From Psammoneis japonica (lineage: Eukaryota), in contig QPGO01000059.1 in assembly GCA_008632985.1 (NCBI GenBank), forward strand, positions 62,001-126,000: a stretch of 64,000 bases of DNA, read 5' to 3'. The translations under genes and the position numbers were made by a program. Positions 12,590 to 64,000 of this stretch are shown piece after piece. The number at the start of each line of letters is the position of its first letter. The first letter of the stretch is position 1. A model generated the notes under the pieces. That model was given only the letters and a program-made list of their open reading frames with translations, had not been told where the DNA came from and did not search any database.

Positions 12590-13400
12590 ACTTTGGGCCC
12601 CCTTGCTCAACTGTGCCGCTCCTCCACACGGACGTCCACCTTGAACCCCTTAATTTGCTTCCTTCTCGGCCCCTCCTTCGCCCTGCCGACATTGGCACAT
12701 CCGCCCCTCCTGCTCCCGCCTCCCCCTCGGCCCCTTCCCGCCACCACTCCATCGCGGTCGATGTCAACGCACCCCAAGCTCCTTCTCGCCCTCCCCCTGC
12801 TGGTGTGCCTGCTCCTTCTTCCCCTGAATTAACTGGGCACACCACACGAGCGCGAGGCTGAAGTTGCTTGGCCCTCCTTCCTCCTCCTCTGCTGATGGCG
12901 GCTCCCTTGTTGTTTCTTCGCTCAACAATGACGGCATCTTCCTTCTCCATTTCACCATTGATCACCTTGGTGGCCTTGGCTTCTTTGCTCAATGCCTCCT
13001 CTTTGGCTCTGCACTCACATCCGTCCGGTCTCAACCCAAGCCACCTTGGTCCTCTCCCTCTGACTTTCGGCACTCTGATCCTTCCTGCTCTGCCTTTCTC
13101 TGTGCCTTGTCCTCTCCGTCTGCTCTCCTTCCATTGGCTGATTCTGCATGGCATTGCCTGTCCTTTGACCACTTTGGCAGCACCTTCCGCACTGCCTCTC
13201 CATCCCAATGGGCTCTTCAGGCTCTCAGCTGTTGCAACACAGTTCTCCATCTCTCTGTGCATGCCCTCCGCTTTGCCTCGACTCTTCCTGCACCTGCGCT
13301 CCCTGTCCCTTTGACCAAACACCCCATGTCCACTGCATTTGCTCTGTTCCATTCTGCCATCACTGCAGCTGCTGCCGTGCCTCCTTCTGCTGTTCCCTTC
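12590..13400 (+). mobile_element. 3' fragment of a CRE-like non-LTR retrotransposon (restriction-like endonuclease domain), decayed
   Basis: VHLEPLNLLPSRPLLRPADIG...IAVDV (PD..D), HHTSARLKL, and FTIDHLGGLG..A..LLFG. A second copy lies at 18325-18660. Confidence 0.7.
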
Positions 13401-15429
13401 CATTCTTTACAGGCTCTTCACAACTGTGTGCTTGAAACTCAATTTCCGATCTGCCACGACAGCAAAAAGCAACGACATCATGTTTTTTCTTAGACACAGT
13501 TTTTTGACAACATTCAATCTGTTGCTGTCATCCCTCCTCACACAGAGGTGCAGACTCTGGCCCACAGCAGGAGCAGCAGCACTGCTCAAACAAGAGGCTG
13601 CCTCCTGGCCACCTTGTTTGTTGGCACGCCAAACCCAGGAAATGTGCGCAAGTCAGCTTTGTTGCCACTCACCCTGTCTTCAGGCATCCCTTCATCATGA
13701 CATTGGCAGTGGGAGGCACTGGAGAAGTGCTTTGGGGCATTTCTTCTTTTCTTGTGTGCAAACTCATCGCCCCTTTTCAGTTTCAAAAAGTTGTCAAAAA
13801 GGGGCTGTGTGGGCAAAAAAAGCGCTGTCCTTTGTGCCACGCCATTTTTCCATTTTGTGAAAAAAGGGCTGGCTCAAGAGTGGTGAGAACTGGAGCATGC
13901 CACAGAGCCCTGAAAGCTTGACAAGCAAGCCCTTGTGCTGCCCACCGCCTTGTGCCTTCACTTCTTTTCAAGGTCAACAGGCCTTTGCAATGGCCCCCAA
14001 CTTGAGACTTCAAATGGCTTCATCTGCAAGCCATGTGGCAGCACTTGTTTGTCAAAACAGCTTGAGATTTGGAAGAAGCACTCAGGCCAAGAACACTTTG
14101 CCATGATGAAAAGTTGTCAAGGCTCAGGTCACCCCTGCTTTTGTCTCTGACCACATCTGCTGCCTCTGAGGGTCAGACACCACCAACCTGCAAGCCAACC
14201 AAATGCCACACAGCTGGCAACAAATGACAACTCTGCCTGCAAGAAAGGCACTCACCTCAGATGGGGCATTGCAGAGCTCAGCTTGACAGGGCCTCAAAAC
14301 CTGGCAAGTTGCTTTTCACCCCCTGCCAAGACACAGGAGCACATGCCACAACATTGACAGCACTTTTCACTTGCAATGCAGCTGCCATGTGCTGTGTGCA
14401 CACCCAATGCTGTGCTGGCAGCAGTTGCTGTGCACCTTGCACATCCACTTGTCAAATGTGCTCTGCGGCATTTGGCACACACACAAGCATCATTGCACTG
14501 CTGCCTGCTGTCCCTGAATGCTTGCCAAATTGCCAGCTCTGGCTTGAGCAATTCTGAGGCTTGATGCTGAATTTTTTTGACAACAAAGGTGCCACTTTTT
14601 GGGAGGGCATTTTTGCAATCAGGTGCAGCACAGCAGCTTTTAATCTGAAGCACATTTTTTGTTGTTTTGGCTCTGTGGCATGTCTGCCTCAACCAATGTC
14701 ACACAACTGATTTCACAAGCTTTCCTTCTGATTGCTTCATTTGGGTTTTCCTCTGCCACCCTGGCCTCCCCTTCATGTTGATGCTGTTCCTTTGTCTCGG
14801 CATTGTTGCCCCACCCACTTTGAGCATTGCTGGGGTGTGAGGTTGAGACTGACTGTGAAGGCTGCATTTGGGGGGGGCTTTTGCAGAGCCGGTGTTTTGC
14901 ACCATTTTGCAGCACAGCAGTTTTCAAGCCAAGCTGCTTGCTTTTCATTTTGTGCACGCATGACCACTCAGCTCAGTCTTCTGTTTGGGCACAAGATTTG
15001 TTGACTGTGAAGGCACCAAAGCCAGTGGTTGATTGCCAGCAGTTTGGCAACCTTGGGAAAACTTGCTTGACCTGACTTTCCTTCCACATCTGAGCCCAGC
15101 AATGCTTCCTGATCAAGCATTGCCAGCAGGAGTCAAATTTGTTGAGGTGCTTTGCCACATTTGAGTGCAGGCTTGGCAATGTGGGCATCACATTTTTAGA
15201 GCTCCTGAGTTGACAGAACTTTTTTCCATGCAAAACTTTAGAGCTTTCAGCTGAATGAGTTGGCTCCCATTGGCTGGAAGTCAGAGAGATGCCTGTCATC
15301 ACCATGCACAAGTGCAGCAGCTTCTCTCTGCTGCAGCCAGTGCTGGGCTGAGAGAGCCTGCTTGTCACAGGGCTTCCTGCCCTGTCATCTCTGCTGACTG
15401 GAAGGATTGTGCCACCCTTGCTGTGCACA

Positions 15430-16230
15430 GTTTCTTGGCATGCCTCACACGGCTGTCAATGTTCAAGGGACAACCATTTGCTTCCTTGGCTTCTTTGACA
15501 AAATCACCAAGAACTTCAAGACTGAATGAAGGGACAAAAGGATGAGATGATTGTGAAGGTGAGAAAGAAACTGCTTTTGGAAACACAGGAAACAAGAACA
15601 TGTGTTCTTGACAACAGACTCAGCTCCAGCTGAGAGCCCAGCTCATTGTGTGAAAATTGACCATGGCTTCATTGTTGGCACAAAGATGAGTCACCACTCA
15701 AATGGGTGGACCTTCAAGCAAGCAGCACAGTTGCCTGAGTAAAATCATGCTTGGCACACTCATTGCAAACACCATGAAAATTGGTGGGGAGACCATCAGC
15801 AGCAGCAAGAGCCACAGCCACTCAGGATCCTGTCACCTGTCACAAGGGGCAGAGAAGGCTGTGCAGCTTAAAAGTTTTGTTCAATGGTGCACACATGCTG
15901 AGCCAAAGGAGTTGCACCTCTTGGAGAAGAATTTTGCATTGTGCTCAGTGCAATTGACAAGTCTTCTCCCAAGCACTCCTTGTTTTGACAAGACGGCATC
16001 CATTGGCAGCTTTCATGGAGCAGCCGCTGTTGTTGACCACCACCCAAATGTGCAAAGGAGAGAATGCATTTTTTTGTCATGGCACCTCTGAGTCCATGAG
16101 CAAACCCTTGATGTTGGAGTTTCTTGACCTCATTTTGGCCGACTGTGTTGGCAGGTGCAGGAACAACTTTGCTGGATCTAGCCAGAAGAATGTGACAATG
16201 TCATTTCCGGTTGAGTGATCCAGCTGTGAG
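15430..16230 (-). pseudogene. Mutated vWA-like paralogue (third copy) inside block A
   Basis: Remnants [46 protein letters not shown] and SLEVLGDFVKEAKE. Internal deletion and stops; intron remnant at about 15522-15620. Confidence 0.85.
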
Positions 16231-16673
16231 TTCTTGCCATGTGCAATTTTTATGATGGTTCCTCTGATTCCTCTGCTCTTTTCATTCATTGCTGGCGGTT
16301 GCTGGACAAAAAGGAAAAAGGTGATCAAGCCATGGATGAAAGTCCCCCCCCCCCCCTCCACTTTCCTCCACGACAGCCACCTGACTCTGCGTGGAGGGCA
16401 GGCAGCAGGCAGACAATGCAGAACATGCTCGCGATCGCTGCCACCATGGGAGGTGCTCCTGCCTCATTCTCGTTGATCTGGAACACAGCATCCGGTTCGG
16501 TTGATGGTGTAGGCTCTAGTGATGCTCTGTCTAGTCTCCTTGTAGTTGACATGCTGCGTATATTCAGTGCCTTTCAAAACGTTTATATTTTAAAGATGCA
16601 TTAAAGTAAATACAATCAAAATTATGAAAGCTTCACAAACATGATGTCCCGGAATAAAGCATGGTATACTGCG

Positions 16674-17991
16674 TTACCAAAACCAGTGCCGTTTTCCATA
16701 TACCTTATCGAGCTTTTTCATATCAACAATGGGCTCCACTCTCTTGGTGATTGGGTTCCATTGTTTCTTTTCCTTGCTCACCATTTCGCCGACGCCTTGT
16801 GAAATCCCTTCCAATCGGCTTGGGCGTCAGGGACGGCGTCAAAGTTCTCGCGACCAAACAATATAAAAAAGAGGTCCGGAGCTCGTCTACCGTGAGCTGG
16901 CGTTCGTCGAGCAAGTCAAATAGTCGATTGTGATATCCGAGCTCTCGGCAGCGATGCAGCGGAAGAGTGTAGTTGAGCCACTTGTTGTTTTCGTACACTT
17001 CCTTGGCTTCACCAACAAAGTCGTCAAGTACTTCAAGACTGAGTTCAAGTTGGTTGTCCAAATCATTGTAGAAGTCAACTACATCGTCTTCGTCTGTACA
17101 AAGTCGCACTACTACCCAAACGGCAGCCCCTCGAGTGAGCGGAGCGCCTGGACAAATTCACGTTTGGTACTCTCGCTGCAGATACCATTGTAATCTGTGG
17201 GAAGGCCATCTGTGGCCAACACAATAACTACACGAGTTCCATCCCTCACCAAAGAAGGCTGAAGTGCAGCCACGTTGGCTCGAATCTCACGAACATGCTG
17301 TGCTAGTGGCGTAACGCCTCGTGGCGACGAGTTTTGCATTGTCTGCAACGCTACCGACAAGTCGTGATCCACATCTGGACCTTCGGCAATACTAAATTGT
17401 TGCGGTCCATTTTGTCTGCCAGGATCATTCAGCATGCGAAAGACGGTGGGTGCCTGCAACACAGCAGCCATTTGAGCGTGATATGTGACGGTCTCTTGAA
17501 TTTCTCGCCATCGAGTGCAGCCCACAAATTTGACCTGATCCTTTTTCCCTTCTACAATTCGATGACCATCGTTTCGAGACATCGATCCGCTATTGTCCAC
17601 CACCCAAATGCGGAGTGGAAACGCTGCGTTATTTCGTGTCATGGCCTGTGCGAGACCTGAAGAAATTTTTAAAAAAAATCGGAGCATGAGAGAAAGTTCA
17701 AAAAGCCAGTTCAAGGAGTACGACAACAGTTTTACAGCAAACATTTAGCTTCTATGAACTGAAAGCGTCATGAGTATCCACAGTCACCGATATTGAATCA
17801 CGAATGAGAATACATACCTCGTGTAAAGCCCTTGCGCTCGAGTGTTTTAATGTGTCGCTATTGAGTACTTTTGATTTTTCCTGTGGCAATAGCACTTGAC
17901 TACTTCTACCAGTGCTTACGAGACCTGGTCGCGGTGCCGTTGGAGGAGGTGGGGCGACGGGTGTCACGTTGTAATCGTATTGGGTTGCCAT
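16674..17991 (-). CDS. vWA-like domain protein, paralogue 2
   Basis: [25 protein letters not shown] and RLCTDEDD motifs. Intron at about 17658-17817. Ends [14 protein letters not shown]. Confidence 0.85.
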
Positions 17992-18324
17992 TGTCGTTGT
18001 GCTGTTGTTTACTTTCTGTTTTTTGTGTCATCGCCGTTGCGTTCGTCGCTCTCGCCAATGGCGGGATTCGCATCGCTCAGTACAAGAAGCACGCGGCAAA
18101 TCGTGTATGTATATTTAATACTGAGATAGCTGTAGGATTACATATGCACGACTCGACTCGATCGGTATGTTTCTACGCAGTATGTCAAACGCGTGGAACA
18201 CAACGGAAGATTCGACTCGTGACTCATTACGTCACGGCTTCCGGTAAAATCGGCATTGAGATCGCAGGTTTTTTTTTGTCAATGTCGCTCACTGCAGCGC
18301 ATGGCTCCACTGCTAGAGAGTAGA

Positions 18325-18660
18325 AACCTCCCTGGTCTTCTCCCTCTGACTTCCGACACTCTGATGCTTCCTGCTCCACCTTCCTTCATGCCTTGTCCTC
18401 TCCGTCTGCTCTTCTTCCATCGGCTGACTCCGCATGGCAACGCCTGTCCTCCAACCGCTTTGGCAGCACTTGCCGCACTGCTTCTCTCTCCCAATGGGCT
18501 CTTCAGGCCCTCAGCTGCAATGTGGTCCTCCATCTTTCTGTGCATGCCCTTTGGTTTACCTCCACTCTTCCTGCCCCTGTGCCCCCTGTCCCTTCGACCA
18601 AACGTCATGCTTCTGCCGTTTTTGCCCCGTTCCCCACTCTGCCGCCACTGCGGCCAATGA
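18325..18660 (+). mobile_element. Second, shorter copy of the CRE-like retrotransposon 3' fragment
   Basis: Collinear with about 13045-13385 (ctccctctgactt...tcccaatgggctcttcagg...ctgtgcatgccct). Confidence 0.75.
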
Positions 18661-19632
18661 TGGACAATGTTTTGGCCTCCTCACACCACAGAAAACAAGC
18701 ACCAGTCATTGACTCTCACACCAACCGCAACAGTGTGCACTTTTTGTTTGCAAGCTCCTGTTTAAAAAAAATCCAAACTCCCAGTTTAAAAGCCACACAC
18801 CCAAATCTCTTGCTGCTTTTCAACAACTGTGGCTGACCTGGCAGTTGGGGCGATGATGGGTCGAATGGTTTTTGGCCTGCTGCCAAAAATTTTGTGCAGA
18901 GAGAGGCACTCCAGGATGACTTGCTGGAAGAACATTTTCTGCTGAGAGCCAGCTTTCTGCCAGCTTTGTTGAAATCAGAAATGCCACAAAAACACACTGT
19001 GGGCATTGCCGCGTGCAATGAAAGTTGTGCCTCTCCTGTGATGCTTTCTCCATGCATGCACATTGCACTCGCCTTTGTCTGTTGCCGTGGCTGCCAGCGG
19101 CAGCAGCACACTTGGGTCAGGCTGGCAGCAACAGCAGCAGATGGCAGCACAAAAAATGCAAAGAAATCTTCACACAGACAGACTGCCGCTGTGGCCACTC
19201 TTGCTGGAGGGTGGTGACTCCCAAAAATTCTGGCTCATCTCCAACCAGCCATTGAGCTGTTTCTCAACAAGAGTGCTGTTTTGGACAAAACACTCATTTT
19301 TAAAAACAGACAACTAAATGATGAAGCACAAAAAGCAAGAGTGCTTGTGTGTGCACAAATCAGAGGAAATCAAGGGGTGGCATGTTGAAAAATGGTGCTT
19401 GAAAAGAAATCTGTGCACCAGGGTTGGAATGCAGAGCTCTGCAGCAAGAAGAGAGGTCATTGGTGCTGGTCAAAATCCTTGTCCAACATGAGTGGAGAGT
19501 GCACCCCCCGCATTTGGGAGTGCCAAGGGTCTCAGCAAATGCAGACAATTTTGTGTTGCACAGAAATCTGCATGATGGGGAGCAAATGATGTGTTTTCAC
19601 ACTGAACAGCTTCTTGCACAACCTCCTCCAAC

Positions 19633-19652
19633 CTCTCTCTCTCTCTCTCTCT
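19633..19652. repeat. (CT)n microsatellite
   Basis: ctctctctctctctctctct. Confidence 0.85.
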
Positions 19653-20649
19653 CCCCAGCCAGATTTCAAGATTTTTTTGCAAATGTCAAGCCACTTGGAG
19701 CCACTTAAAAAACACTTGCTTTTGCCACAAGAGGGAAAATGGCAGCTGGGTTTCATTTTTCACATTGTTTGGATGAGAGTTTGATGTGTGACAAATTTTC
19801 TGCATTGACAAGGTCGTGCATTGGCCTCATTGCTTCTCCACTGCTTTGGCGCCCTTTGCTGCAGTCACGCAGGTTTCCCTCGCATCATCAACACACGACC
19901 AAAAACTGCAGTGCACCAAGAATTGGCTGTCAACTTGCAGCATGTTTGTTTCATGTGGCTGGAGGCAAGCCACCACAATCTGGTGTGTGAGTTTGAACAA
20001 GCTGGGTGCATGCAGAATTTTGAAATGGGCTGATTCAGTGAAGTTTGTTCTCATGAACAAATCATCTCTTTGCATGAATGAGCAACTGCCAAGGATGACT
20101 TTGCAGCAGCATTGACCAGGAGAGTTGTCCAATGTTGTTGATTCTCCAACTGGACAAGCAAGAAGGCTGCACTTTCCTGCTTGGGCTGGCACCACTTGAG
20201 AGTTGGATGTTGTTGCTGACAAGAGTTGATGATCCATTGCACACCCATGTGTCCTTCTTGCAAAGTGGATCGTTTTCCCACAGGCTCCAGTGGTCTCTGA
20301 AATCACCCATGAAAGCAATGTTTGGACATCCACAGGGCTTGTGTCTCGTGAAGTTTTTCCAAGTCCTTTTGCCACGCAATCATGGCGAAGAGGAACTGCT
20401 GGACAGCTCATGCATTCCGAGTGCTGGGAGTGATGCGGAAAGCGAAGACGCGCGTCCTTTTCGTTCAAAGCCCAACAGCATTTGGATTCGCACCGTCATC
20501 GCCGCTGATGCAATTTCTCAAATTTCCTTTCCAAACAACTAAATTGGCAGAGGGAAAGAAGCTGTGTCGCATTGTAGGAAATCGTGTCCGCGTGACAAAG
20601 GGTTTTTTCTTTCATGGTGAGGCTTGTTAATTTTATATGGTGTGTGGAA

Positions 20650-26350: not shown

Positions 26351-26477
26351 GAGCGATTGCGTTCGCCCAGAGACAAATAACTTCTGGGCTACGGTAGAAC
26401 CTCAGAACCTCAAGTAGTGTTTTGTTACAGTAGTAGCTTTCGTTTTTGAAGATGGGTGCATCATCCACACACTCCAG

Positions 26478-29432: not shown

Positions 29433-29576
29433 GCAAAGCTAGACAATTTGATCACAACCTCATGTACTGCATAACGACACCTGAAAGTTCAACATGAATG
29501 CATATGCGTTTTTCTTCTATATTGAAACGCCGTTCGCTTTGCCCTTAACACATTGCCTCTTGAAACGCGTTCCATG

Positions 29577-31450: not shown

Positions 31451-31533
31451 CTGTGTTTCCCTTTTCCTTTTGATCTGTTTACGGATAGATGCACCTGTTG
31501 GTCAACCGCTAGATACAACCATGTATGAAAACT

Positions 31534-32856: not shown

Positions 32857-33081
32857 CTATATCTTCTGGTCGCGGATGCGGTCGCGGATCTTCAATCTTG
32901 TCAAAATTGAGAAATGTTTGGTGGGGGTGAGCTCAATCCGAACGCAGTGCTGGTGCCTGCTATCACATTAGCTGTGCTGCATTCGTTTCGTCGCATTACA
33001 TACACAAACACTACGATTATTAAGAAGAAGAAAATAGAAAGAACGATTCTCGATTTGATTGACTACTTCTAGCACTTGACA

Positions 33082-43984: not shown

Positions 43985-44239
43985 TGGTTGTCGCTGTGCG
44001 GACACATTAGAAGATGGTTCTGCAATCATGCAAGAGTTAATAAAAATGGCAAAATAATGAGACCAACGAGAAAGAGGGTCTGCCACAGTGAAATGTGGTT
44101 CGTTTCACCCTCATGCAGTAGGTGCATGTTTGAAGGAGTCAAGACAATAGAGCAACGCGGGTCCAGGTTTGCGGCTTGCGGCGGAACGAGGGTTGTCGTT
44201 GTGTCGTGCGTACCGTACAGCGTTGCAATGCGGTAATAC

Positions 44240-51915: not shown

Positions 51916-52418
51916 CTAATTTGTAGCCATCAGCGGAATGGAGAAGATTACAAAAGCTGATCGCACTCTGTATGATGTAGGCGTCAGACTATGCGTAAAA
52001 AGCATGGGCCTTTCAATTTCAAAGAAAACACCTGTGTTTTATCCGTGCACACTATCCTCTAGGAATAGCTTAAATGCCAACAAGCGCCGATGCGCACCAC
52101 CAGGCCGTCGAAACGAAAGGTAAGATGCCTTTCCGCATGGTGGCTAGCCCTAGGTAGTGTCAAATTGGGGCGTCTTAACCACAGCCTTATCGTCTCGTGA
52201 GTGCGACCTAAAGCGAAGAATCATGAGAGTTGGTGGTCAGATCGAATACTGTATTTGTCAAGTTTAGGGTAATGATGAGAATTGTCTCCCGACCAATTTT
52301 CGTGATTGATGGCTTGGAACCAACTTTTCTCGAAACTGGCTACTGTAGCGTTGGCTTTGGTCGGATCCGGAGTGCTTCCGGAAGGGTCCAAGCAACAAAG
52401 GATGGCCTTGATCCTTTG

Positions 52419-53023
52419 TCAATAGGTGTATTGCTTCAACGTAACTTGGTAGGTTACCTCATATGCGTCAAGGCGAGCGGTGCTGGCACGAATCTCAGGA
52501 TTACGATATCCTTTTCGGTATTCCAAACCACGGAGTAGTTTCTTGACAATATCTCTTGTATTCGTCAGGAAATTGCTCGCGAAGGTATTTCTCTTCAGGC
52601 CGCACCAGCACAAAATAAAAAAGGGAACGCCCACTGGAACTGCAAGCAAAAGAATCCACGCATTATTGGATAGAAAGCCTGCACCGGGCATGAAAAAGGC
52701 CACGCATGCAAAATACGTTGGATGGCGTGAGTATCGAAAAACTCCCGTGGTAATAAGACGTGTGGTGGGTCGGCCCGGCTGGTGTGGTTGTTGGTACTCT
52801 GCAAGTACTGCATGAGTAGAACGAATCGTTAAAATGCCAAGGATCAAAAGAATTGACGCTACGGTGAAACGCACAGCATCCGGAATGCCGACAGTTGCAG
52901 GGGAAACACTCGCTGCAGCGTTGCACAAAGAAGATACATGACAGCACCAAGAAACTCGCTCGTTTTGTGCACAGTGCTCTTGTGAGCCGCAGGAGGAGCA
53001 TGGCTGTCTTCAATCGAGCTCAT
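52419..53023 (-). CDS. ICMT/PEMT-family membrane methyltransferase, frameshifted
   Basis: QPHQPGRPTTRLITTGVFRYSRHPTY; hydrophobic helices. The 3' end is uncertain. Confidence 0.8.
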
Positions 53024-53299
53024 GGTGATCTCAGTTATGGGAAAGCACGTCGTGTTCCTGAATGATGGAGACAACAAAAGTGAATGTGTCATAACATGCT
53101 GATCCAGAGCGGGAGAATATCGTTCTGGAGATCGCAGATATCCTGCAGATAAGCGACCGCGCATTGCAGCGCGCACACAGTTGTAGTGTGCTCGATGCCA
53201 GTGATGGATGATTCGTCACACCGCCACGTTTTGTCCGATGGCAACGGTTGTGGAGTGATGGAGAAAGCGTGTCTGAGAAAGTGAAGCTCTCATAGCGTT

Positions 53300-55905
53300 G
53301 TGCAGATGACACTAAAGAGACTGAGTGCTGTCCTGCTGGCTGTTCTTGAGAGAGATCTCACAGATTGAAGAGATTTTTTTGCTCGTGTCCCGCCGCTCAC
53401 ATGTTGACCTTGCAGATTGGGAGTTGTTTGGCAATTTTGAAAAGGCATCCCACTGAAGAACAAGTTTTGACCAAGGCTGTTGAGCCCAAGAAGTTGGAGC
53501 CTGGAGAGCACATGGTGGTGTGTCCCTTCCTTTCTTGGCACCTTGTGTTCTGTTTTGTTCAAAAGTGTGAGGCACAAAAAAGTGGAGTGCTGTCTGTGCA
53601 GCAAGTGACTCATCACATGGTTGAAGGGACTTTCACAGCTTTGAAGTCAGGGAGCACGGAACAAGCATCATGCCCTTGAAGGTGACATGCAGGAGGGGGG
53701 AGGGGCACAGTGTTTTTTTTCTCTCCACTTTTGCTCCCCTCTCCCACTCTGTTGTTGATTTGTGTGCATTTGCTTTGTGCTCTTGCAACAAAAAGATCCA
53801 AGCAGACAGAGCTCTTGATCTTCTCATGGTTTCACCATGGAGGGGAAAAGTGAGCAGGGCCTGAGCAGCTTTGGGCTTGACATGTTCAGGCGTCACATTT
53901 GACATGTGGCCAGTGCGGCGCACAGGGAAGAGGCAGGAGCAACAATGCGCTGCTGATGGGTGGGCAGTGTCTCCTCTGGATCCTCTCACAAATCAGTTGA
54001 TTGCAGAGTGATTGCATTTTTGTCAAGTTCTTCTTTGGCTCTGTTGATGGCAGGCATGCGGCTTGTGGGTTTGGGGGGGAGCTGGGGCTCCCCAGTTTAT
54101 TTTGTCTGGCGAGATGGGTTGTGAGCCACTGGGACGCACCAAGTGCTGCGTCCCGCACCACGCAGCACGGACCACGACGAGCGCATGGTGCACAGTGCAG
54201 CACACACAGTGCACGCAAGCGAACCGCCATGGCAGATGCCATCCATGTCAAGAAGATGCCATTGAACGAATGTGCCATGGAGGATGATGCGCCTGCTGCA
54301 GATGAGTCTTTTCTCTCCTGAGGAACTTGTTCAATGAGAATCAAACAAGAGTTCTCAGACAAGATCACACTCTCTCTCCTTCTTGCATGCAACAAAAGGC
54401 CAGTCCAGGTGCCCAGCTAGAGCAGACTGCAGTTTAATGTGTGCAACAGATCGCATGATGATGGTTTAACCCACACACTGCGGGTGCAGTCCCTCCAGGT
54501 TTAACAGGCAGTGTGATGACGTGTTCCAAAAACTGGGCCCCCGCTTTTTTTGTCGGGGGGATTCCCCTTTTTATGCGAAGTGCTCCCCCCTAAACCCACA
54601 AGCCCACAGGCATGCTGCAGACACCGGCAGATGCACATCTGCCGCTGTCCCAAATTTTTGACAAAAATGCAAGAAAAAGAACAAGAAGAAACTTCAGCAA
54701 AAAAGCAAAAACAGGGAAAAAACAAACAAAACACTTGCCACCAACTCTCACAAAAAATGGCCAATGGCCAACAGACATCACACACTGCAACGCTGTTCTG
54801 AATCAACATTCTGAGCACTCCATTTTCTCACACAGGTGTGCCAAATGCCATGAGCATCTGCGAGGAAGAACAAACATCTTGCAGAGGAGCTCAAGATTTT
54901 GTGAAGAGAGGGCAAATCACAGCAATGAAGATGTTGAGGCCAGAGAAGTCATTGAGAACATGACGCTGCTTGCAAGTGCCTGCACCTTCTGAGGGAGAGC
55001 TGTGCACACATTTTTTTTATGTGTGCTGGGGGATCTCACCAATGTTCCACACCATTTGGCCAGCTGGGCAGCAGAGTCAGGTGAGGTTGGCCAGAGGATC
55101 TTGTCAAAACAGATGGCACACAACATTGGGTGGCATGGCACCCAACTGTTGTCCTCTTTTGACTGGTGCACACAAAGTTGAATGGCTGATGGGCGGCTTG
55201 TGTGAGGGAGTGTGTTGGAACACAAGGTGTGCAAGAAACGTTGGTCTTGTCCTCACTTTTGCTTTGGCTTCTGCGCCAGGATGCAACAACATGTGGCAGT
55301 GTGGGGTGCATTTGGAATGTGGCTGCAGTCCAAGTGGTGAGCTTTGGAGAGTGGTGGTGAGACCAACACAGATTTTTCCCCAAGAAGTTGGAACCTGGAG
55401 CATGTGGCATTGCTCTGATCTTGCCTCTCTTCCGCTGAGCATTCTTCCTGCAGCTGTTGCTCAAGCACATGTCAGTGGAACCTGGTCAGCAGTGCAGCAA
55501 GCACCTCATGTGGTTGAAAAGATTGGTGCTTGCCATTCAGTGCTGTGCTGGGATTTGAAGTCAAGGAGCACAACAAACCATGACTTTGGAGTTGACGTCA
55601 GCATGTTTTCCTGCACACACTTTCTTCTTGGCATGTTCTCATCCCTGCTGTTGTTGACTTGCTTGCGTTTGCATTGTGCACTTGCAACAACAAAGATCTC
55701 AGCAGATGGCCCCCTTGATTTTCTGATGGCTTTGTCATGGAGGGGAAGAGTGAAGGGGATCTGAGGCCCCCTTGCCCCCACCCATTGTGCCACCAGCACA
55801 CTGCTTCTTGTTTGGCACACAGCAGCATGGCATGCAGATGAGCGATGTTTCTGGTCACCAGGAACCTCCTCTGGATCCACTCACAATGCAGTTAATTGCA
55901 GAGTA
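53300..55905. other. CpG/TpA-depleted block D containing two diverged copies of one segment (about 53400-53870 and 55310-55770)
   Basis: Shared cccaagaagttgga.cctggag, ttgaagtca.ggagcac, cttgcaacaa.aaagatc and catggagggg.a.agtga in the same order. Confidence 0.82.
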
Positions 55906-56209
55906 ATTTCAACTTTTGAAAATTCTTTTTAGCCCACCGGTGGCAGACGTGCTCTCTGCCAGATAGAGGGAGAGGGCCCATTCACTGCCTGCCTGAAGGA
56001 AATCCGTGGCGACGACTCCTTGCGACAAAATCGCGACAAAAGCTACAAGCAATGGCTGCAGCATCGTAAAGTTAAAATGCTCAAGAGTGACCAAAGCACT
56101 TCTACCCTCCGCACTCAATTTGATCAGCAGCAGCAGTATAGCATGTACTGAGTTGTCCCCACCAAAGTGTTGCGAATTTACTACTTTGTTTATTAATAAA
56201 GTAGTAGGG

Positions 56210-57222
56210 TCACCCCTCCAGGTTTTGTGCTCCCACGATTTGTCCTCCCAAATGAACGACCATTTTGCCAATCACTCGTGAGAAACCCCCGGTGCTGAGC
56301 ATAAATCTCGACGCGTGTGCCATGAAATAAAAGTCTTGATCGGGGTGATTTCCTTCGATTTGCAGTTGCACCTGGTATCCAGCCTCGGCGATTCCTCGGG
56401 AGAGACAATGCGCATAGAGTTTACTCTGTTGCCACTCCTCTGCTTCATGAGAGCCCCCCACGAACTGGATAGTGTCGATACTCTTGCCGGAATCCGTGAT
56501 GTTTTCAAGCATGTCAATGTAGTCGTTGACACTAAAGATAGTCTTGACCTTTATGTAATCCGGATGGTGGGTGCGGCCTCCGTTGAGTAGCAAGTAGGTA
56601 GCATCGGCATTTGTCCTACTCTCATTTGCACTACTCTCATTGAGGAGTTGCGAGGCATGTTCAATGACATCCCCGAGTCGCAGATGCACAATGAAATCCC
56701 TGGGTCCAGGCTTTTCGAAACCCGGTCGCTTCTCTTCTTCGATGAGTTGAAAGATTTGCTCCACAACGTCCATATTTTCTTTGCCATCTGGTTCAATACA
56801 TTTACTCATGGCCCCGTACATACCAGCAATAGTATCAAAATACGTCAGATTGGGCAAATAGTCAGCATTCTCACCCAATAGTGTATTGTTGCAGGTGGAG
56901 CAAAATCTGATACAGTCGCCCAAACGATATTTATTCCCCATAATGCTCTTGCCCTTGAATAGCGCGTCATGGGGCCCCCGTAACGTTCCTCGACGGGGAA
57001 CGCCAGCAAAGGGTTTATACAGATTCGTGTCATTTTTCACATCTGTAACACATTGCTCGAGCCACTCTGGGGTTGGTCGAGAAGGCATCTTGATCGGGGT
57101 GGGGGAGTTGTTGTTGATATTGTTGTTGTCGTCGTCGTCATTGTTGTTGTCCGCGCAGCATAGACCCACACAACAAACACAAAGAGACAACAAATGGCAA
57201 CAATTCTTACAAAAACGTTCAT
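56210..57222 (-). CDS. Type II membrane glycosyltransferase-like (GT11/fucosyltransferase-type motifs) protein
   Basis: IVHLRLGDV and PDQDFYFMAHASRFMLSTGGFS; N-terminal hydrophobic segment. Confidence 0.6.
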
Positions 57223-57717
57223 GGTGCTGCTCTTTGTGACCTTATGCCGAAAGTTACAGGTGCATTAATTTTAGCGTACCGTACCGCCGTCTGTGCAGGA
57301 ACTGACGGAGGATGAGCTTTTTTTTTCTGGATTTTGTCAACCGTGTCTCGGGATTCCAAAATATGAACAGTTAAAAAGAAGTTGGCGCCCCCATGAGAAG
57401 TTTTAGAAGAGGAGACGAAGGGGAAAAGGAGGGAAGAAAGGAGCTTCACTAATGCGGTGCAACTCTGTTATGAGCAAGCACCCACGTTTGGCATAGGATG
57501 TTGATGATCAATACAGTATTTGAAATTTCTTATCGTTAGGTCTGCACTGCACCGGCAGGCAGTCTCACGCCCCGCACTGTAATGCACAGTAGAACCGCGC
57601 GTAGAAAAATGTCAGGCTACAGAAAATTTGCTGAGGGGGAGAACGCCGAATCAGATTTTTTCCTTGTTTCGCACGAGATTTGCAACGCAGCGACCATGAC
57701 ATAACCCGTCACGTAAG

Positions 57718-59850
57718 ATGGGCGTCGGAGGCCTGTGGCTCAAGGCGCTTTGTCCCATCAACACTCAACCCTCTGTTCCCTTCAGAGTGATGCCCGAGGG
57801 AAGAGACTTGGGGTCGATGTTTCAGTTTCGCTGCACAAAAACTGTCATGAGAATGTCGCGGTGCAGTGTTTGATGCTGGATCCACCACATCCACCGAAGA
57901 TCTCATTGACAGCTCTTCGTCAACACACAAGAAGCTTGTGTCCACTGGCATCACTCCAGTCCATGCATTTGAGGATGGGTGTCATCATCCGATGAAGAGT
58001 GTGAGGCCCGAGAGGCGCAAGACAGAGAACCATCCAGAAAGCCAACGGAGGATGGAGGAGTTCTTTTGCAAAGCCTGAAATGGCACTCTAATGCCTGATT
58101 CAGATCATGGCAAGGTGGCAAAGCATGTCTGAGCTCTCTGCAATCCAAGTGCAGACATGATCAGTGGCGTGGATGAAGTGCGACAATGTGGAGTGTGAAT
58201 GCGCCCCGTTTGAGGCAGAACATCAGCTCATGAAAATGGAGGCAGAGGGTTGGATTGATGCTGTCATGACAGCAGAGAATGGTGACACAGTGTTCCTCAG
58301 TGCAAAAGTTGTTCATTTCAAGGTTGACTTCAATGCTTGCAAGAGTGGAAGTTGCACACCAGCCAAAGCAACAATCTTCCTGACGGGCATCAAATGGGCG
58401 AGCATTCATTCAAGCACTGGGCAGTGATGGCCAAACTCCTTGGAATGGACTGCAACAAAAACATGTGCAACATTGCATTTGCAAAGGTTTTTCACCACAT
58501 TTTGTCACAGCTCTCAGTTTGGTCTGGTGCAAATGCTGTGCAAACAAACTGCACACAACAAGCACCCAAGAGCTCGCACCCGGGAAGGGTGCATGATCGC
58601 CTTTGACAAAGCTGTTGCACCATTCAAACATTGCCCTGTGCTTGATGCAGATTCCAATTTTGCACCATTGACTCCTTTGCCTGCATCTGTTGACATGAGT
58701 TCATGGGGCAATCTTGTTGGGTTTGATCCTCTCAAAGTTTTGCCACACAGTCAATCATTGACTGCAATGTTGCTTGATGATTTGAAGGTCCAACATTTCT
58801 GAATGGTGCCCCACTGAAGGCTTTGCCAACTCCAACTTGCACTGCAGGTGAGAACTGGGAAGCTTTTGGAAAAGAGCTGCCTTGATGTGCACACTTGAAT
58901 TTTGGGGGACTGCTCCTGCAGAACATGCCCTGATGGATGTGTGCTGAAGTGTGTTGGACTGCAGCGCAGCTTGGCCCAATCCCTGTGGATCAGTCTAAAG
59001 TGGTGGGGAAAATGTTGGAGTTCATTTTGCAAAATGAATTGATTTTGGAACTTGAGAAGGTTCCAGTTGAAATTGGCTTGTGGATGACACATGAGGTGTT
59101 GGAGCCTGCTGGCTGCACGACAGGTTGGGGTCACAGCTGCTGCTTTGATCGCAAAACCCAGCTTGGATGGAGCAATGTGGATTTGGTTGCAAGATTTTAT
59201 CCCAAAGGAAATGAGCATGGCCTTGTGTGTGGAGTCTTGCTGTTGGAAGGTGGCAGCTTGCTTGTAGATTCCATCCACTTTCAAATGTGTTGGGCTCTTG
59301 CGGATGGCAGCACGGTTTGGGTTTTCAGGCTTCACTGCATTCCATTGATGAAGACAGATGTTGCATCATCAAACACCTCAGAGGCAAAGCCAAAGAAGAT
59401 GTGCAGGAAGGACAATGGTTCATGTTGGTTTTGTTGCTTTGTCCAAGGAGTTTTTGCTGCTTCTGTTTTCCTGCTGCACGGTTGCTGCAATGACAGTGGT
59501 GTGTGCTGTTGTGTTCTTGCAACTCTGTGTGTGTTTTGACAGTCACAGAGGTGCATGGACCAAGGCATGTTTGAGAGAGCAATGCCGCCCTCTCCTGTCA
59601 ATCACACACCATTTTTGATCAAACAGATTGCATTTGCAGAGACTTCTTGGTGCTGCACTGCTTTTTCCACTGGAACAGAGAAGCAAACAGCAATGCTTTG
59701 TGCACAAAAGAGTTGCAACAATTGCAGATGCCTTGCTGCATCACACTGCTTTGTCTGCTCTAAAAGCAAGCAGCAATGCCACACAAGAATGAGCTGCTGT
59801 TGCAGAGACTTCAACAATTTGTCCACTGGAAGCAAACACAAAATTTGAAG
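57718..59850 (+). pseudogene. Decayed EXO1/XPG(Rad2)-family 5' nuclease fused to a C-terminal SWIM-like zinc finger
   Basis: MGVGGLW..L.P; RGKRLGVDVSV.LHK; GITPVHAFEDG..HPMK....ERRK; APFEAEHQL...GWIDAVMT..GD..FL..KVV.FK; H3TH-like LLGMDC...NIAFAK; FDKAVAPFKH.PV; then CIP.MK...GC.N.SG.C..VLATL. Confidence 0.8.
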
Positions 59851-60011
59851 GCACATTCAAAGACATTTCATGGCATCATGATGCTTGTTGCAACAGCAGC
59901 AAACAGCAATGCTTGGCACAAAAAGAGAAACATGACAAAGTCAATCATGAATGAGACACACAGTGCCAGTTTTAAATTGGACACTCCAGCAGTCACACAG
60001 AAAACCCCTGT

Positions 60012-62551
60012 TTATTCCTGGCTTTGCAGTGGCCGACCAATGTTCATCTCGGCGTGTCCCCATTCCAGCATGTGTGGTGGCATCAGGCACAAATTTTTGC
60101 ATGGTGCTCCATCCCAAAGGCCAGCCATTGCCACCAGACAAGCAAAAGCAGTTTCCACAGGATGCCATGCTCAACAAAGATCATGCTTGTCAGAGAGCTC
60201 CAGCTCATGACACTGTTTGACTTCTTGCTCTTGCAACAACCGTGGCACCCAAAAGCTCCAGTGAAGCAAGGAAACAAACATCTGTTTTCTCAAACCCCTT
60301 GTCTCCAAGACCTTTGTTTGGCAGCATCTTGTGCTGGCACAGAAAGACACCCGTTAGAGCCTCGGCATCATTGTCCAAAACATGACCTTCTGGCATCAAC
60401 TCGCTGCCAAGCCAGCATGACAAATCTCACTGGAACTCTTTTGTCATTTCCAAGCATGCACTCAGGATGCACCTTTTGATTGTTTTTTGGTTGCACAACT
60501 TGTGCAGTCTCTCAAACAGTTCAAGTTGCTGCAGCAATTCCTTTGAAGAGCTGTGGGGCAACAAATGAAGCACCTTCTCACTCATGGCCTTCATTCAGCT
60601 GCAGCTCTTGCTCAGCATTGGTGCAACCTTGTCCAAGCTGGCTTTGCACAGCTTTTCATCCATCACGCAAACAACTTTCAGCCACTCACTGAACCACTTG
60701 TCAATGTGATCCGCAATGTGTTGACAATTTTTGGGTTGAGATTGTCCACAGCCAAGGAGGCTGCTGCTCCTTTTTGTCAAGTCCAAATTGCAGTCAGAGT
60801 CACTGAGGCCATTCCAGTCACTCTCAGCACTGCTGCCACCACCACTCTTGAGCTCAAAATCAAAATCCCAAAACTCCACAACTCTGGAACTGGCCCATCT
60901 GTTGTTGGTGTCATGACCCTTCTCCTGAGCCTCGTGGGGATCTGTTGCCACCACTGCTTCCTCCAGCTCCTTCCCTGCCACCAAGCAATCCCACGTCATC
61001 CAGCACCTGAGCTCTTTTTGAACTTTGTTTTCTTTGGCATGTCTTTCCACTCATGAATGGGAGCTTTCTCCTTTTGGCATGAACCAGTTGTCTCCACAAG
61101 ACATTTTTCATCAACTCGAGCCCCATGTGCCCTTTGTGTGCTCACACGACAACTCGCACAGCAACACAAAATTCACAAACCAAAATGCAGAGCAGCTCAT
61201 CTCACTCTGCTGTTTTGTTTGCAACATGCTGCACCACCCTTCTGCATGGTGTCTGTTGGTGTGTCCTTGCCATCCAGCAGTGCAGCAGTTTTGTCAAAAC
61301 TCTGTCAACAAATTCATCTGGCATCCCTTGTCAAAACAGTTGGGAGGCATCGGCAAGATGGAAAGAAACTTGCCACACTTCTCACCCCAACCTGGGGCCC
61401 ATTTGTTCAGATGCTTCAATGCTGCAGTCGTCACCACCCCAAAAAACCATCCCGTCATCTTTTGGACTGGACAGTGGGCCCAAAGTGTTCCACAATTGGT
61501 GCCTGTTCAAATGCAGTTGGATTTGGCAGGGCACACACAAGCTTCTTCTTTTTGGCAACAAATTTGATTGTTGGAACATGCTCAGGCACATTGGCAAAGA
61601 ATGCAGATGTGTGCCACTTTGCCTTGTTAAGAGACTGGAATCCAAACAAGTCCTTGGCTGCTCCAGGGTTGTTGGTGTGCCATTCTTCTGACATCAACTG
61701 GTGCCAACATGCTGAGTTGCTGTCAAGAAATTCTGTCAAGGAATCTTCCACCTCATCAGCAACAAACAAAGGTTCAGGAGGAGAAGGAGGGTTGTCAGCT
61801 TTGCACTTCCTGTGGCTTGTTGCTGCCCTCTTGCTTTCCTGCAGGTGCTTGACCTTGGCCTTTGCTTCTTTCAATGCTCCTTTCTGGGCAATGATGCACT
61901 CAGCAACAATGGAGGCAGCTCTTCAATTGTGAAAGCTGCAAGGCTGTGTGCTTCTTCAAAGCCTGCTGACAATGACCCAGCTTTGCAAATGCCATTCGCT
62001 CATCACACACTTCCTTGCAGGAATTGTGTGATGACTTTGATGTCTCTGCAAACAGCAGGGGTTCTTTTGACATGTTGGGGCAATGAAAGCAGTTTTTCTT
62101 TCCTTTCTTTGCAATGCCGAACCATGTCAAAGGTGTCAGCAAGTGTCTTCATTTCTGTTGCAGGGAGAGGGGCATGAATGTTTTCTTGCCCTTGTCAAAA
62201 AACTCTCCAACTGTCCAGCCATCCAATGGCATCTCATGACTGGCACCGATTCAATGCTGGCAACCAAATCTCCAGATGTGCCAAGGTTCAACAGTGCAGC
62301 ACCTCTCCATTTTGACTGCTTCGCTGAGTCACCTGAAAGCTGTTGTCACTTGCACCTGCCAGCATGAGTTTGCACTGTCAGGCAATGGCACCAAGAGCAC
62401 AAAGGTGTTTCTGAACCTCACGGCATGCATCACCCCAGCTGCAAATGCTGGTGTCATTTTCACCCCACCTCCTTGGATCATCTTTCAATGAAGACAGTGG
62501 CACCAGCTCCATGCTGTGAGAGGCACAATCAGGTTGACACGTGTTTTGCAT
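60012..62551 (-). mobile_element. Decayed DDE transposase of PIF/Harbinger-ISL2EU type (DDE_Tnp_4-like)
   Basis: HTH-like TAFEQ...FGV....KWAP.WG; LLDGKDTPTDT (D1, about 61250-61280); LGDKGFEKTD (D2, about 60280-60310); ARHPVETAF (E, about 60145-60172); C-terminal NIGRPL. Possible THAP-like N-terminus CQPDC. The 5' end is tentative. Confidence 0.75.
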
Positions 62552-62984
62552 GTGGTGTTGTGTTTCATCATGACTGTGAGTTGATTGTTGTGCAAAGTGA
62601 AAGCAAAAATCAGTGTCTCTTCCAAGCTCCACCATCAAATTTTTTGGAGTGTGATGCATGTCTGGTGCACCATGAGGCTGCTCCTTGTGGGAAGACCTCT
62701 TGTGCATCAAAGCAAGAACCAACCATCTTTTGTGCTGAGAAATGTGCAGTGGATGACGCGCGGCACACATGTGGCTGCTCCACTGTTTGAAACTGTTGAA
62801 GTGGTTCTTGTTTTGCCAGCCACATTTGCTCCCTTTGTCCATCAGAGCCAATGCCAAGACACCCTCCAACCATGTGTGAGAAGTGGAGCATGTGCACAAA
62901 AATGATGCTGGCACAATTTTTTGCACACCCCGCCAGCAAAACATGGCATTGTTTTCACCCCATCATCTCAAAAACGCATGTTGA

Positions 62985-63870
62985 AAGTTCAACTTCAACA
63001 AGCAGTGATCTCACCTCCATCATTTTGTGAAAAAAACGTCAAACAATTTGATGGATGGACATGTTTCAATGACCACATCTCCATCACAAACCCCATCATT
63101 CAAACAAACCCTCAGTGCCTTGCCCCCTTTTCATTTGCACTTTCTGTTTTGCAGCAGCTTCCAACTCTTTTTGCTGTTCATGAAAAAAGTTCTCACAAGA
63201 TTGTTCCCAGGAAAAAAAATTGCTGAGTCGAACGGGCCAACTCTCACCTTCTGAGAATTGAGTCTTGAGTCTCTTTTGAGCAGATTAATTTTTGGTGGGT
63301 GCCCCAAGCAACATTTTTCCCACCAAGGTTGCTCAGAGAATTGTTTGATGATCATGGTTAAAATGATGGTCTTCACAAAATTTCAGTTGGAGATTTTCCC
63401 ATCTGATGATGACAATGGATGGTGACACCATCTCCTCATGAAAGCTGTTGGCCATTGAGTCTTGTGACTTTGTCAGTCCATGATGCAGGACACTTGGATG
63501 TGTGGACCAACGAAGCTTCAATTTCCAACTGCAGACAGCCACAAAGCAGACAGCATTGCCATTTTTAGCTTGGAAGCTGTCACAAAATGGGCAGCAAGAT
63601 GAATTTGTTTTGCTCATTGTCCTTGTGGGAAAATGCAATCTGAGCAGAATGACCAACTCTGCGCTGAAGGACTGAGCACAAATTTCTGGAGAAAACAAAA
63701 AGGCAGAGCCAAATTCCTTGCACATGAAAAGGGGGTGAGGTGCTGAGAGGGTTTGTTCAGATGATGACAGGTTTTGCAGTGGAGACACAATCATTGAAAC
63801 ATGTCCATCTGCCAAATCATTGGACAGTTTTTTCCCACAAAATGGAGGTGATCACTGCTTGTGTCAAATG
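62985..63870. repeat. Diverged inverted repeat: arms about 62985-63140 and 63720-63870
   Basis: caagcagtgatc..acctccat...gatggacatgtttcaatga...aacaaaccctc...cccccttttcat matches the reverse complement of the second arm. Confidence 0.8.
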
Positions 63871-64000
63871 GCCTTCATGTTGACAAAAGATGACATCTCA
63901 CAATGTCATGAGACAACATTTTGGGGGGCACCCCCACCACTTTTTTGTTTGCAGCTCCTGCAAAGGTGCAGGAATGGCCCCACAATGTCCCAGCCTTTTC

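Follow-up and report, generated by a model that had tools for sequence, protein, structure and literature searches.

Nested loss of TpA and CpG dinucleotides in sharply bounded blocks of a diatom genomic region

Known systems of targeted transition mutation

Invading DNA can be a target of mutation, as is known for fungi with their repeat-induced point mutation (RIP) and for animal deaminases. RIP, found in Neurospora and other ascomycetes, is triggered by duplication and converts CpA into TpA; it creates TA dinucleotides, lowers the G+C content and leaks somewhat into adjacent unique DNA. In basidiomycetes and rusts, repeats are hypermutated at TCG, a process that has no TA arm. The ADARs, which are metazoan enzymes, prefer a G 3' of the edited adenine. 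Here we describe a 64,000-nucleotide stretch of the genome of the diatom Psammoneis japonica (assembly GCA_008632985.1, contig QPGO01000059.1, positions 62,001 to 126,000; termed “the window”), in which long blocks have lost nearly all TA and most CG dinucleotides to TG and CA, and compare these blocks with the systems described so far.

The closest described system, found by mutation accumulation, is a hypermutation that targets TpA in the integrated viral DNA of the chlorarachniophyte Bigelowiella natans (Mettrop et al., bioRxiv 10.64898/2026.01.13.699255). In the B. natans lines 231 of 302 nuclear mutations fell into two integrated viral regions, a single-copy, silent 186-kb nucleocytoplasmic large DNA virus (NCLDV) and a 25-kb virophage. 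The regional rate of ~6e-7 amounts to ~1000 times the background, and only some of the lines were affected. Nearly all regional mutations (230/231) were A->G or T->C, all of them on TpA according to the authors. Moreover, the B. natans genome contains 124 clusters of TpA-poor, CpA+TpG-rich 1-kb windows, in which CpA+TpG rises linearly as TpA is depleted, its low-TpA coding sequences are enriched in DDE and reverse transcriptase domains, and an ADAT2-like deaminase was proposed as the enzyme. The Discussion of the same paper describes ADAR-type A->G editing as having a 5' U/T preference; CpG, diatoms and stramenopiles are not mentioned in it (bioRxiv 10.64898/2026.01.13.699255).

For diatoms, CpG methylation of transposable elements (TEs) is described in the accessible part of one publication (PMC9998398), and the accessible part of a mutation-accumulation paper on Phaeodactylum tricornutum mentions neither TpA nor hypermutation (PMC6604790). 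Our literature search returned no description of joint CpG and TpA conversion, nor did it uncover TpA hypermutation in diatoms. An initial annotation of the window, made from its letters only, had stated that it knew of no mechanistic description of such a process in diatoms; the literature search likewise found none in diatoms, while a chlorarachniophyte precedent has existed since 2026.

Blocks depleted of TA and CG

Observed/expected (o/e) dinucleotide ratios were computed per 1 kb, and the window was divided by a two-state segmentation on CG+TA density and by further segmentations on TA and CG separately. The CG+TA segmentation yields six depleted cores (12933-16370, 18652-20346, 44435-51738, 53395-54097, 54644-55892 and 57919-64000), which sum to 20,471 bp or 32% of the window. 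The TA-only segmentation yields five TA-free zones with a total of 22,620 bp (35.3%). The zones and one partly depleted island are as follows (no strand is assigned).

12652-16509: block 1, TA-free zone; CG-poor core 12933-16370; 28 CG (o/e 0.13), 9 TA (o/e 0.04), TG/CA o/e 1.74/1.77
18322-20539: block 2, TA-free zone; CG-poor core 18652-20346; CG o/e 0.17, TA o/e 0.04
44238-51916: block 3, the largest internal TA-free zone; CG-poor core 44814-51738; 51 CG (o/e 0.12), 19 TA (o/e 0.04)
53314-55892: blocks 4 and 5, a single TA-free zone with two CG-poor cores, 53395-54109 and 54291-55937
54098-54643: partly depleted multi-copy island between blocks 4 and 5; CG o/e 0.53, TA o/e 0.24
57715-64000: block 6, TA-free zone that runs past the window end; CG-poor core from 58208; CG o/e 0.16, TA o/e 0.03

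The cores are set off clearly from their flanks: TA o/e is 0.00-0.04 in cores and 0.53-0.59 in flanks, CG o/e 0.12-0.17 and 0.93-0.97, and TG/CA o/e 1.4-2.1 and ~1.2, respectively. In absolute terms, the cores contain 46 TA and 164 CG dinucleotides, compared to 802 and 1109 expected at the flank rate. Individual 1-kb windows do not overlap in TA or CG, since block windows range from 0.00 to 0.18 for TA o/e and from 0.03 to 0.3 for CG o/e, and the lowest flank values are 0.37 and 0.51. The zone edges are sharp to ~100-300 bp, and the gene islands of 1.7-2.3 kb between blocks have a normal composition (TA o/e 0.56-0.59). The loss of TA has the direct consequence that open reading frames (ORFs) in the blocks contain only 0-1 Tyr each. 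The initial annotation had described five blocks that cover over a third of the window, nearly lack CG and TA, are saturated with TG/CA, hold almost Tyr-free ORFs and adjoin CG- and TA-rich genes. The TA-only segmentation agrees with these blocks almost to the base, and the o/e values and Tyr counts bear out the rest.

The losses and gains balance. Blocks lack 83.1 CG+TA per kb relative to the flanks and have gained 78.5 TG+CA per kb, and the density of pyrimidine-purine (YpR) steps is similar in blocks (236.1/kb) and flanks (240.7/kb). TG and CA are 1.53-fold higher in blocks than in flanks, and an in-silico conversion of both CG and TA in flank DNA raises them 1.56-fold. Because the loss of CG and the loss of TA cancel each other, the G+C content is unchanged (0.482 in blocks, 0.476 in flanks). 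The double conversion of CG and TA into TG and CA, in sharply bounded blocks beside normal genes, is confirmed as real and far exceeds chance.

Neither of the two long-known processes accounts for the loss of TA, in agreement with the initial annotation. If only CG is converted in the simulation, TA stays at 1.00 and the G+C content falls to 0.43, compared to the 0.482 observed; thus, decay of methylated CpG alone does not account for the whole signature. RIP resembles the pattern in being block-confined, in its defence-like saturation with transitions that destroys ORFs, and in some spread to unique DNA nearby. Unlike RIP, which generates TA, the process in the window has depleted TA to 0.04, enriched CA and left the G+C content unchanged.

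Two nested footprints and their sequence context

The CG-poor zones are nested in the TA-free zones, with left offsets of 281, 330, 576, 81 and 493 bp and right offsets of 139, 193 and 178 bp. Among 638 windows of 300 bp, none is low in CG with normal TA, and 10 are low in TA with normal CG, 9 of them at block edges. The loss is also more complete for TA (~95%; range 94-96%) than for CG (~85%). A CG-poor zone inside a wider and more completely TA-free zone makes two co-targeted processes likelier than a single enzyme.

Both losses depend on the neighbouring bases. TA is retained at 0.69 in TTAA, 0.40 in CTAA/TTAG, 0.08-0.09 in GTAA and ATAA, 0.04 in CTAG and 0-0.02 in ATAT, ATAC/GTAT and GTAC; read as A->G, the 3' neighbours of TA hits rank pyrimidine (Y) > G > A. 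CG retention ranges from 0.41 in GCGC down to 0.05 in TCGA, and the 5' neighbours rank T > A > C > G. Most residual TAs in the cores have a T before or an A after them (42/46, compared to 577/1575 in flanks), and they mostly lie within T-run/A-run contexts, e.g., TTTTAAAA and GTTTAAAA (18763, 18787, 19301, 45992, 48240, 51023). An enzyme that avoids A-tract DNA, regeneration by slippage and homopolymer assembly errors are candidate reasons for this residue.

The CG arm shares several features with the decay of 5-methylcytosine (5mC) in vertebrates and plants, namely the conversion to TG/CA on both strands, its location in silent DNA and a stronger loss of A/T-flanked CGs. Unlike in 5mC decay, TA is removed here as well, and the CG-poor core lies inside a wider TA-free zone. 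The strong depletion of TCG, the most affected CG context, is also reminiscent of the TCG process of basidiomycetes and rusts.

Hits are distributed evenly over the two strands. TG and CA are equally frequent in each large block (375/371, 191/187, 838/841, 146/142 and 683/701), and the lag-1 autocorrelation of the TG/CA series is 0.022 +/- 0.015; simulations gave 0.037 for independent hits and 0.155 for strand-coordinated patches of 50-1000 bp. The low autocorrelation indicates that hits built up site by site on either strand, and not in processive single-strand runs. Strand-coordinated clusters, as left by processive editing of the APOBEC/AID or ADAR type, were not found in the TG/CA series of the blocks. 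ADAR hyperediting that is fixed through retrotransposition would resemble the TA arm in being an A->G change with a 5' T. In contrast to ADAR editing, the 3' order in the window is Y > G > A, hits are not clustered by strand, and no reverse transcriptase remnants were found.

We consider it probable that two co-targeted, strand-symmetric and directional transition processes, a TpA mutator and a nested CpG decay, have acted on old silent DNA. The blocks would then be silenced inserts or duplicated DNA of old age in the diatom nuclear genome, mostly non-coding and near saturation. The first process would be a TpA-specific hypermutation of the B. natans kind, which turns TpA into TpG or CpA by A->G changes on either strand; it would be the faster and wider of the two, define the block by its footprint and remove the ~94-96% of TA. 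The second would convert CpG into TpG/CpA, most simply through 5mC deamination in methylated silent DNA; it would be limited to a core whose edges lie 80-580 bp inward of those of the TA-free zone, and remove ~85% of CG. 5mC probably underlies the CG arm, and by analogy a polynucleotide adenine deaminase (ADAT2/TadA-like) may underlie the TA arm. The second, A->G process at TpA that the initial annotation had postulated has thus become plausible through the B. natans precedent, and the enzyme stays a candidate.

A single DNA deaminase with dual specificity for C and A, e.g., of the ADAT2 type, might instead make both arms. The two arms occupy the same blocks and are both strongest with a T 5' of the target base (TCGA being the least retained CG context, and TA by definition). 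Enzymes of this type have been reported to act on both bases: amphioxus ADAT2 edits A and C in DNA, and Trypanosoma ADAT2 deaminates C in DNA (as cited in bioRxiv 10.64898/2026.01.13.699255). This explanation is unlikely, given the different extent and completeness of the two footprints, the lack of windows low in CG with normal TA, and the lack of strand coordination between neighbouring hits. In addition, 210 of 211 mutations in the B. natans NCLDV region were AT->GC, with no C->T arm, and CpG specificity is predicted by 5mC decay without a new enzyme. A single mutator with two arms, as the initial annotation had envisaged, fits the nested CG-poor zones less well than two processes do.

The TA arm could also be a T->C change, if a thymine hydroxylase of the TET/JBP type placed 5-hydroxymethyluracil (5hmU), or a further oxidised base, in silent DNA with a preference for TpA, where it would mispair with G at replication. 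Oxidised thymine is mutagenic, and TA->CA and TA->TG are indistinguishable in double-stranded DNA; the data fit this route equally. According to the accessible part of PMC11572971, the TEs of dinoflagellates carry 5mC along with 5hmU, which a TET/JBP enzyme produces, and a TA/TC preference was reported by older work. The base-resolution map of Breviolum minutum, in the accessible part of its publication, shows no sequence preference for 5hmU (PMC11071213). Furthermore, a TC preference predicts a loss of TC beyond TCG decay, and TC stands at 0.83 of the flank value, which is ambiguous. We are not aware of 5hmU having been shown in diatoms, and the literature search turned up no such evidence; overall, this route appears rather improbable.

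Error-prone repair, the second candidate of the initial annotation, is a further alternative. T:G mismatches from 5mC deamination would recruit non-canonical mismatch repair with a polymerase eta-like enzyme, and A would be mutated at WA (W, A or T) within the repair patch. Polymerase eta prefers WA/TA, and TA loss reaches a few hundred bases past the CG-poor core, a distance of the order of a repair patch. However, a WA mutator should hit AA as well, while AA/TT shows no depletion (1.08 of flank) and no context is better protected than TAA. CG events would be the trigger, yet a larger share of TA than of CG has been lost, and in B. natans TpA hypermutation goes without accompanying C->T events. 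These points render the repair route distinctly improbable.

Contents of the blocks

The Pfam scan comprised 171 stop-to-stop ORFs of at least 70 amino acids (aa) with >50% of their length in blocks, plus 105 ORFs of 52-69 aa; 150 ORFs were searched at E<=1, and the remaining 21 and the short ORFs at E<=0.005. No TE or viral domain was detected in these 171 + 105 ORFs, including reverse transcriptase, integrase, transposase and capsid domains. The TE remnants that the initial annotation had placed in the blocks are therefore not supported. The sole credible match is XPG_I at 58161-58424 (E=7.6e-5, 23.5 bits, under the 24.9 cut-off), and the same piece matches EXO1 in the PDB weakly (E=0.056). 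It belongs to the following feature.

57718-58603, plus strand: putative XPG/Rad2-family nuclease pseudogene in a three-frame translation, broken by frameshifts and stops; XPG_I match sub-threshold

From the ATG at 57718, this XPG-like pseudogene reads MGVGGLW, GITPVHAFEDG, APFEAEHQ and LLGMDC, with N-terminal and H3TH-like motifs recognised by eye. The XPG_N and H3TH pieces (GITPVHAFEDG, LLGMDC) gave no family match and no alignment to any solved XPG-family protein. The initial annotation had used two of these strings as examples of Tyr positions that read His or Cys. Both strings are present, and the XPG_I piece is supported by the Pfam tool below threshold; the other motifs lack an alignment, and the replacements stand at the level of motifs.

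Further searches with block ORFs gave little. The longest one (61057-61929) has no relatives in the protein collection, the XPG_I ORF has none among longer proteins or in the viral-contig scan, and PDB searches with four other block ORFs yielded nothing meaningful. A HMMER search with the XPG_N-like ORF returned three weak matches (query residues 3-38, 56-74 and 7-56), which are not centred on GITPV and are presumably low-complexity matches. The only outcome of a metagenome scan with the PEMT-like island gene was a GC-rich contig that is unrelated and normal in its dinucleotides.

Since a transition does not alter the purine/pyrimidine (RY) sequence, the 3-base periodicity of coding DNA was measured in RY space. 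The medians are 0.81 (blocks), 2.34 (flanks) and 0.72 (shuffled sequence). Within blocks, coding-like periodicity occurs only at few spots, i.e., at 12.6-13.8 kb, at 50.7-51.9 kb and in the XPG remnant. The blocks are otherwise non-coding or long decayed.

Divergence between copies within the window

Repeated segments within the blocks allow the changes to be followed after duplication. The copies are as follows.

13038-13371, plus strand: direct repeat 1, copy A; aligned to 18324-18656 over 331 columns, with 267 identical, 53 transitions and 11 transversions
18324-18656, plus strand: direct repeat 1, copy B; in the edge of block 2, TA-free but not yet CG-poor
53485-54081, plus strand: direct repeat 2 (~600 bp), copy A; partner 55379-55974
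55379-55974, plus strand: direct repeat 2 (~600 bp), copy B; partner 53485-54081
62998-63139, no strand assigned: inverted repeat arm; partner 63719-63862; 139 columns, with 22 transitions and 6 transversions

Divergence between these copies is dominated by transitions. The repeats in the window have an RY-space identity of 0.88-0.97 and a base identity of 0.67-0.85; for direct repeat 1 the values are 0.95-0.97 and 0.75-0.85, respectively. The alignment of direct repeat 2 comprises 540 columns (362 identical, 118 transitions, 60 transversions) and 113 gap columns. A transition-tolerant alignment of four copy pairs adds up to 1161 columns with 210 transitions and 86 transversions.

At 33 of the 210 YpR steps shared by these pairs, one copy has CA and the other TG; about 5 such steps are expected from the per-site transition rate of 0.16. 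The inverted repeat arms contribute 8 of their 30 shared steps. Each CA-versus-TG step needs two changes, unless the copies descend independently from CG or TA. At 21 of the 210 shared steps only one copy keeps CG, and at 4 only one keeps TA, facing TG or CA in the other. Copy B of direct repeat 1 retains CG at 12 YpR steps that face TG/CA in copy A (CG/TG 8, CA/CG 4). In a paralogous pair of normal composition (8830-9219 / 16726-17157), CA/TG doubles occur at 3 of 52 steps. The doubles and the CG or TA kept in one copy indicate that the change was mutational and took place after duplication.

Two zone edges coincide with recognisable units: the ATG of the XPG-like pseudogene lies 3 bases into the TA-free zone of block 6, and copy B of direct repeat 1 (18324) starts 2 bases into that of block 2. 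The TA footprint may thus trace the inserted or duplicated unit itself. The direct-repeat pairs might be long terminal repeats (LTRs); no internal reverse transcriptase or integrase was found, and we make no LTR claim.

These comparisons bear on an intrinsic origin of the composition, according to which foreign or selfish DNA arrived already free of TA and CG, e.g., through selection in a former host or virus, and was not mutated in place. Many viruses are known to suppress CpG and UpA, and no unmutated relative of any block was found in the protein, viral and metagenome scans. Such an origin is very unlikely in view of the CA/TG doubles and the 25 steps with CG or TA in one copy, the extension of TA-free zones into the edges of flanking unique DNA, and an XPG-like gene that is full of stops and frameshifts and without Tyr. 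Moreover, an o/e of 0.04 is far below phycodnavirus values, of which the integrated NCLDV (0.45) is the lowest and 0.75 the mean (bioRxiv 10.64898/2026.01.13.699255).

Presence of the blocks in a public sequencing run

The window was compared with a public sequencing run, termed X1, for which depth was expressed as summed word depth and contigs were compared over 42000-61999 at a likeness of at least 80%. Of the sampled exact 31-mers of 43000-52999, a stretch that is 73% block, the fraction 0.57 is contained in X1. The reads therefore do not restore CG or TA every ~12 bases, since in that case almost no block 31-mer would be shared. X1 contigs cover all 30 bins of 42000-61999. Single-copy flank bins have a summed depth of 47-57; block 3 reaches 56-92, and the values of 110-355 for block 6 indicate related copies elsewhere. 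Together with a 315-kb contig, the similar depth over blocks and flanks fits accurate reads, in which the blocks are present.

Where window and X1 differ within blocks, there is no systematic restoration of CG or TA. Differences include TA (window) versus TG (X1) at 46421, CA versus TG at 46434-5 and TG versus CG at 46438; these are the same classes as those between copies within the window.

The hypothesis that the pattern is an artefact, caused by long-read miscalling of modified bases (5mC at CG, modified A/T at TA) that polishing left uncorrected, draws on the unrecorded library type of X1 and on small indels relative to X1 that are typical of long-read assembly (34 mismatches and 30 gaps over 937 bases, 44405-45321), but it is most unlikely given the shared 31-mers, the word depth of ~45-90 over blocks and flanks alike, the 315-kb contig, the unrestored differences listed above and the real frameshifts and stops of the XPG remnant. 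A base-calling artefact was one of the outcomes that the initial annotation had named as refuting its reading, and the TA/CG-free sequence of X1 at flank-like depth argues against it.

The counts of differences vary along the window. Besides those at 44405-45321, there are 19 mismatches and 15 gaps in 848 block bases at 48843-49675, and 5 mismatches and 5 gaps in 2484 bases of the mostly normal stretch 55019-57497. Allelic divergence, paralogous contigs or assembly errors are possible reasons for the larger number of differences in blocks.

Repetition and targeting

The most repeated stretch of the window, 42132-42856 (~725 bp), is not affected. Its summed depth in X1 is 1,900-6,700 compared to ~50 for single-copy DNA, and its composition is normal (CG o/e 1.22, TA o/e 1.04). 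It is represented by many variant X1 contigs, has loose ends at 42132 and 42856, and carries 13-nt near-terminal inverted repeats at 42160-42172 and 42841-42853; it may be a young, short, non-autonomous transposon that the process has left untouched. Just upstream of this element lies an ORF of 175 aa with 35 Cys, a normal composition and no Pfam match (41398-41922, minus strand).

The paralogous gene pair at 8830-9219 and 16726-17157 is likewise untouched. Hence, repetition alone does not predict the signature. The depth of block 3, 1.1-1.8 times single-copy at a likeness of at least 80%, is weak evidence on copy number, because heavily mutated copies fall under this threshold. The confinement to repeats and the RIP-like character that the initial annotation had proposed are not supported: in contrast to RIP, the highest-copy repeat and the paralogs keep normal CG and TA, and the main B. 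natans target is single-copy. Targeting would probably depend on the state of the chromatin or on foreignness, rather than on repetition.

Regarding the island between blocks 4 and 5 (54098-54643), the bin in which it lies (54006-54672) has a summed X1 depth of 1029, corresponding to ~20 copies. The island could be a younger multi-copy insertion midway through conversion.

Weighing the two-process reading

The B. natans system and the window share the conversion of TpA into TpG/CpA with both strands alike, a TpA depletion that is matched by a gain in CpA+TpG, the delimitation of silent regions beside normal genes, and many affected ORFs without annotation. Unlike the rhizarian B. natans, in which the rate was measured directly, P. 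japonica is a stramenopile, and the window displays only the end state. The diatom lineage, the near-total erasure of TA and its fixed spatial relation to CpG loss are new here.

Several observations weigh against two co-targeted processes of this kind, or against a B. natans-type origin of the TA arm. Depletion in B. natans is mild (Rho TpA 0.45 for the NCLDV, with a TA-rich virophage), compared to 0.00-0.04 here, and B. natans lacks a C->T arm (210/211 AT->GC), whereas CG o/e in the cores is as low as 0.12-0.17. Its targets are recognisably of viral or TE origin; such domains were not found in the 171 + 105 block ORFs, and a foreign or TE origin of the blocks stays conjectural. The simulation of both conversions reproduces the rise of TG/CA but misses a drop of AT (observed 0.79, simulated 1.01) and a rise of GC (observed 1.29, simulated 1.01). 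A model of TA conversion only comes nearer (AT 0.84, GC 1.20). Either the ancestral sequence had more TA and less CG than the genes have, or a further process acts.

The copy pairs add further reservations. Transitions are only 1.35-fold denser at shared YpR steps than elsewhere (0.217 vs 0.161, p=0.02), and the pairs have undergone heavy ordinary divergence, with transversions at 12% of the other columns. This high background implies that the copies are old, and a modest, chronic rate excess would suffice, so that hypermutation is not necessary. By our estimate, a rate at TA raised about ten-fold or more would be enough if it lasted long, without the 1000-fold bursts of B. natans. The polarity of the changes, as judged from sequence, would follow from the mass balance and the few sites at which TA or CG is kept in one copy. 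Finally, in addition to its unrecorded library type, X1 may come from the source sample.

With these points taken into account, two processes, a TpA mutator and a nested CpG decay, continue to be the explanation that we favour. Beyond this, it is possible that diatoms share a TpA-editing defence of the B. natans type, either old across the stramenopile-alveolate-rhizarian (SAR) lineages or convergent, which acted on an insert right from its first bases, ran to completion in the blocks and was followed by inward decay of methylated CpG; we propose this only tentatively.

Implications

A TpA-specific form of targeted mutation was first reported in 2026 from one rhizarian alga, and a saturated footprint in a diatom would mean that it is no single-species curiosity. 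Such a process could reshape a third of a genomic region and would occur side by side with the decay of methylated CpG, in a constant spatial arrangement; the sequence of events, TA editing first and CpG decay second, would be readable from the block edges. Its context rule, with the strongest effect on TAY and near-sparing of TTAA, would serve as a fingerprint in the search for the enzyme. Because diatoms dominate ecologically and include genetically tractable species, the enzyme and the targeting rule (foreignness, silence or repetition) could be tested.

Erasure of TA would leave no Tyr codon and only one of the three stop codons. Long spurious ORFs arise in the blocks because TAA and TAG are gone. 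Annotators need to recognise such blocks, in which homology-based annotation of TEs and genes is defeated.

Flanking genes and minor features of the window

The genes in the flanks are ordinary eukaryotic ones, encoding R3H, HSP20, SET and redoxin proteins, a YchF-type GTPase, a Vps4 AAA ATPase and PEMT. The named relatives of the Vps4 ORF are diatoms, with Seminavis robusta (78%) followed by Odontella, Fistulifera and Epithemia, which marks the source as a diatom; the top match overall has 82%.

The paralogous gene segment (LEVLDDF...) at 8830-9219 and 16726-17157 is on the minus strand in both copies, each of normal composition. The second copy is located in the gene island that separates block 1 from block 2, where it adjoins a vWA-like ORF at 17115-17744 (minus strand). 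The latter (VVDNSGSMS...ATDGLPTD) has no Pfam match at E<=0.001. An ORF of 965 aa at 33073-35967 (plus strand) gives as its only Pfam signal a borderline GLUG motif (E=8.3e-4, 20.1 vs 20.5-bit cut-off). Apart from a single N at window position 24055, the 64 kb are complete.

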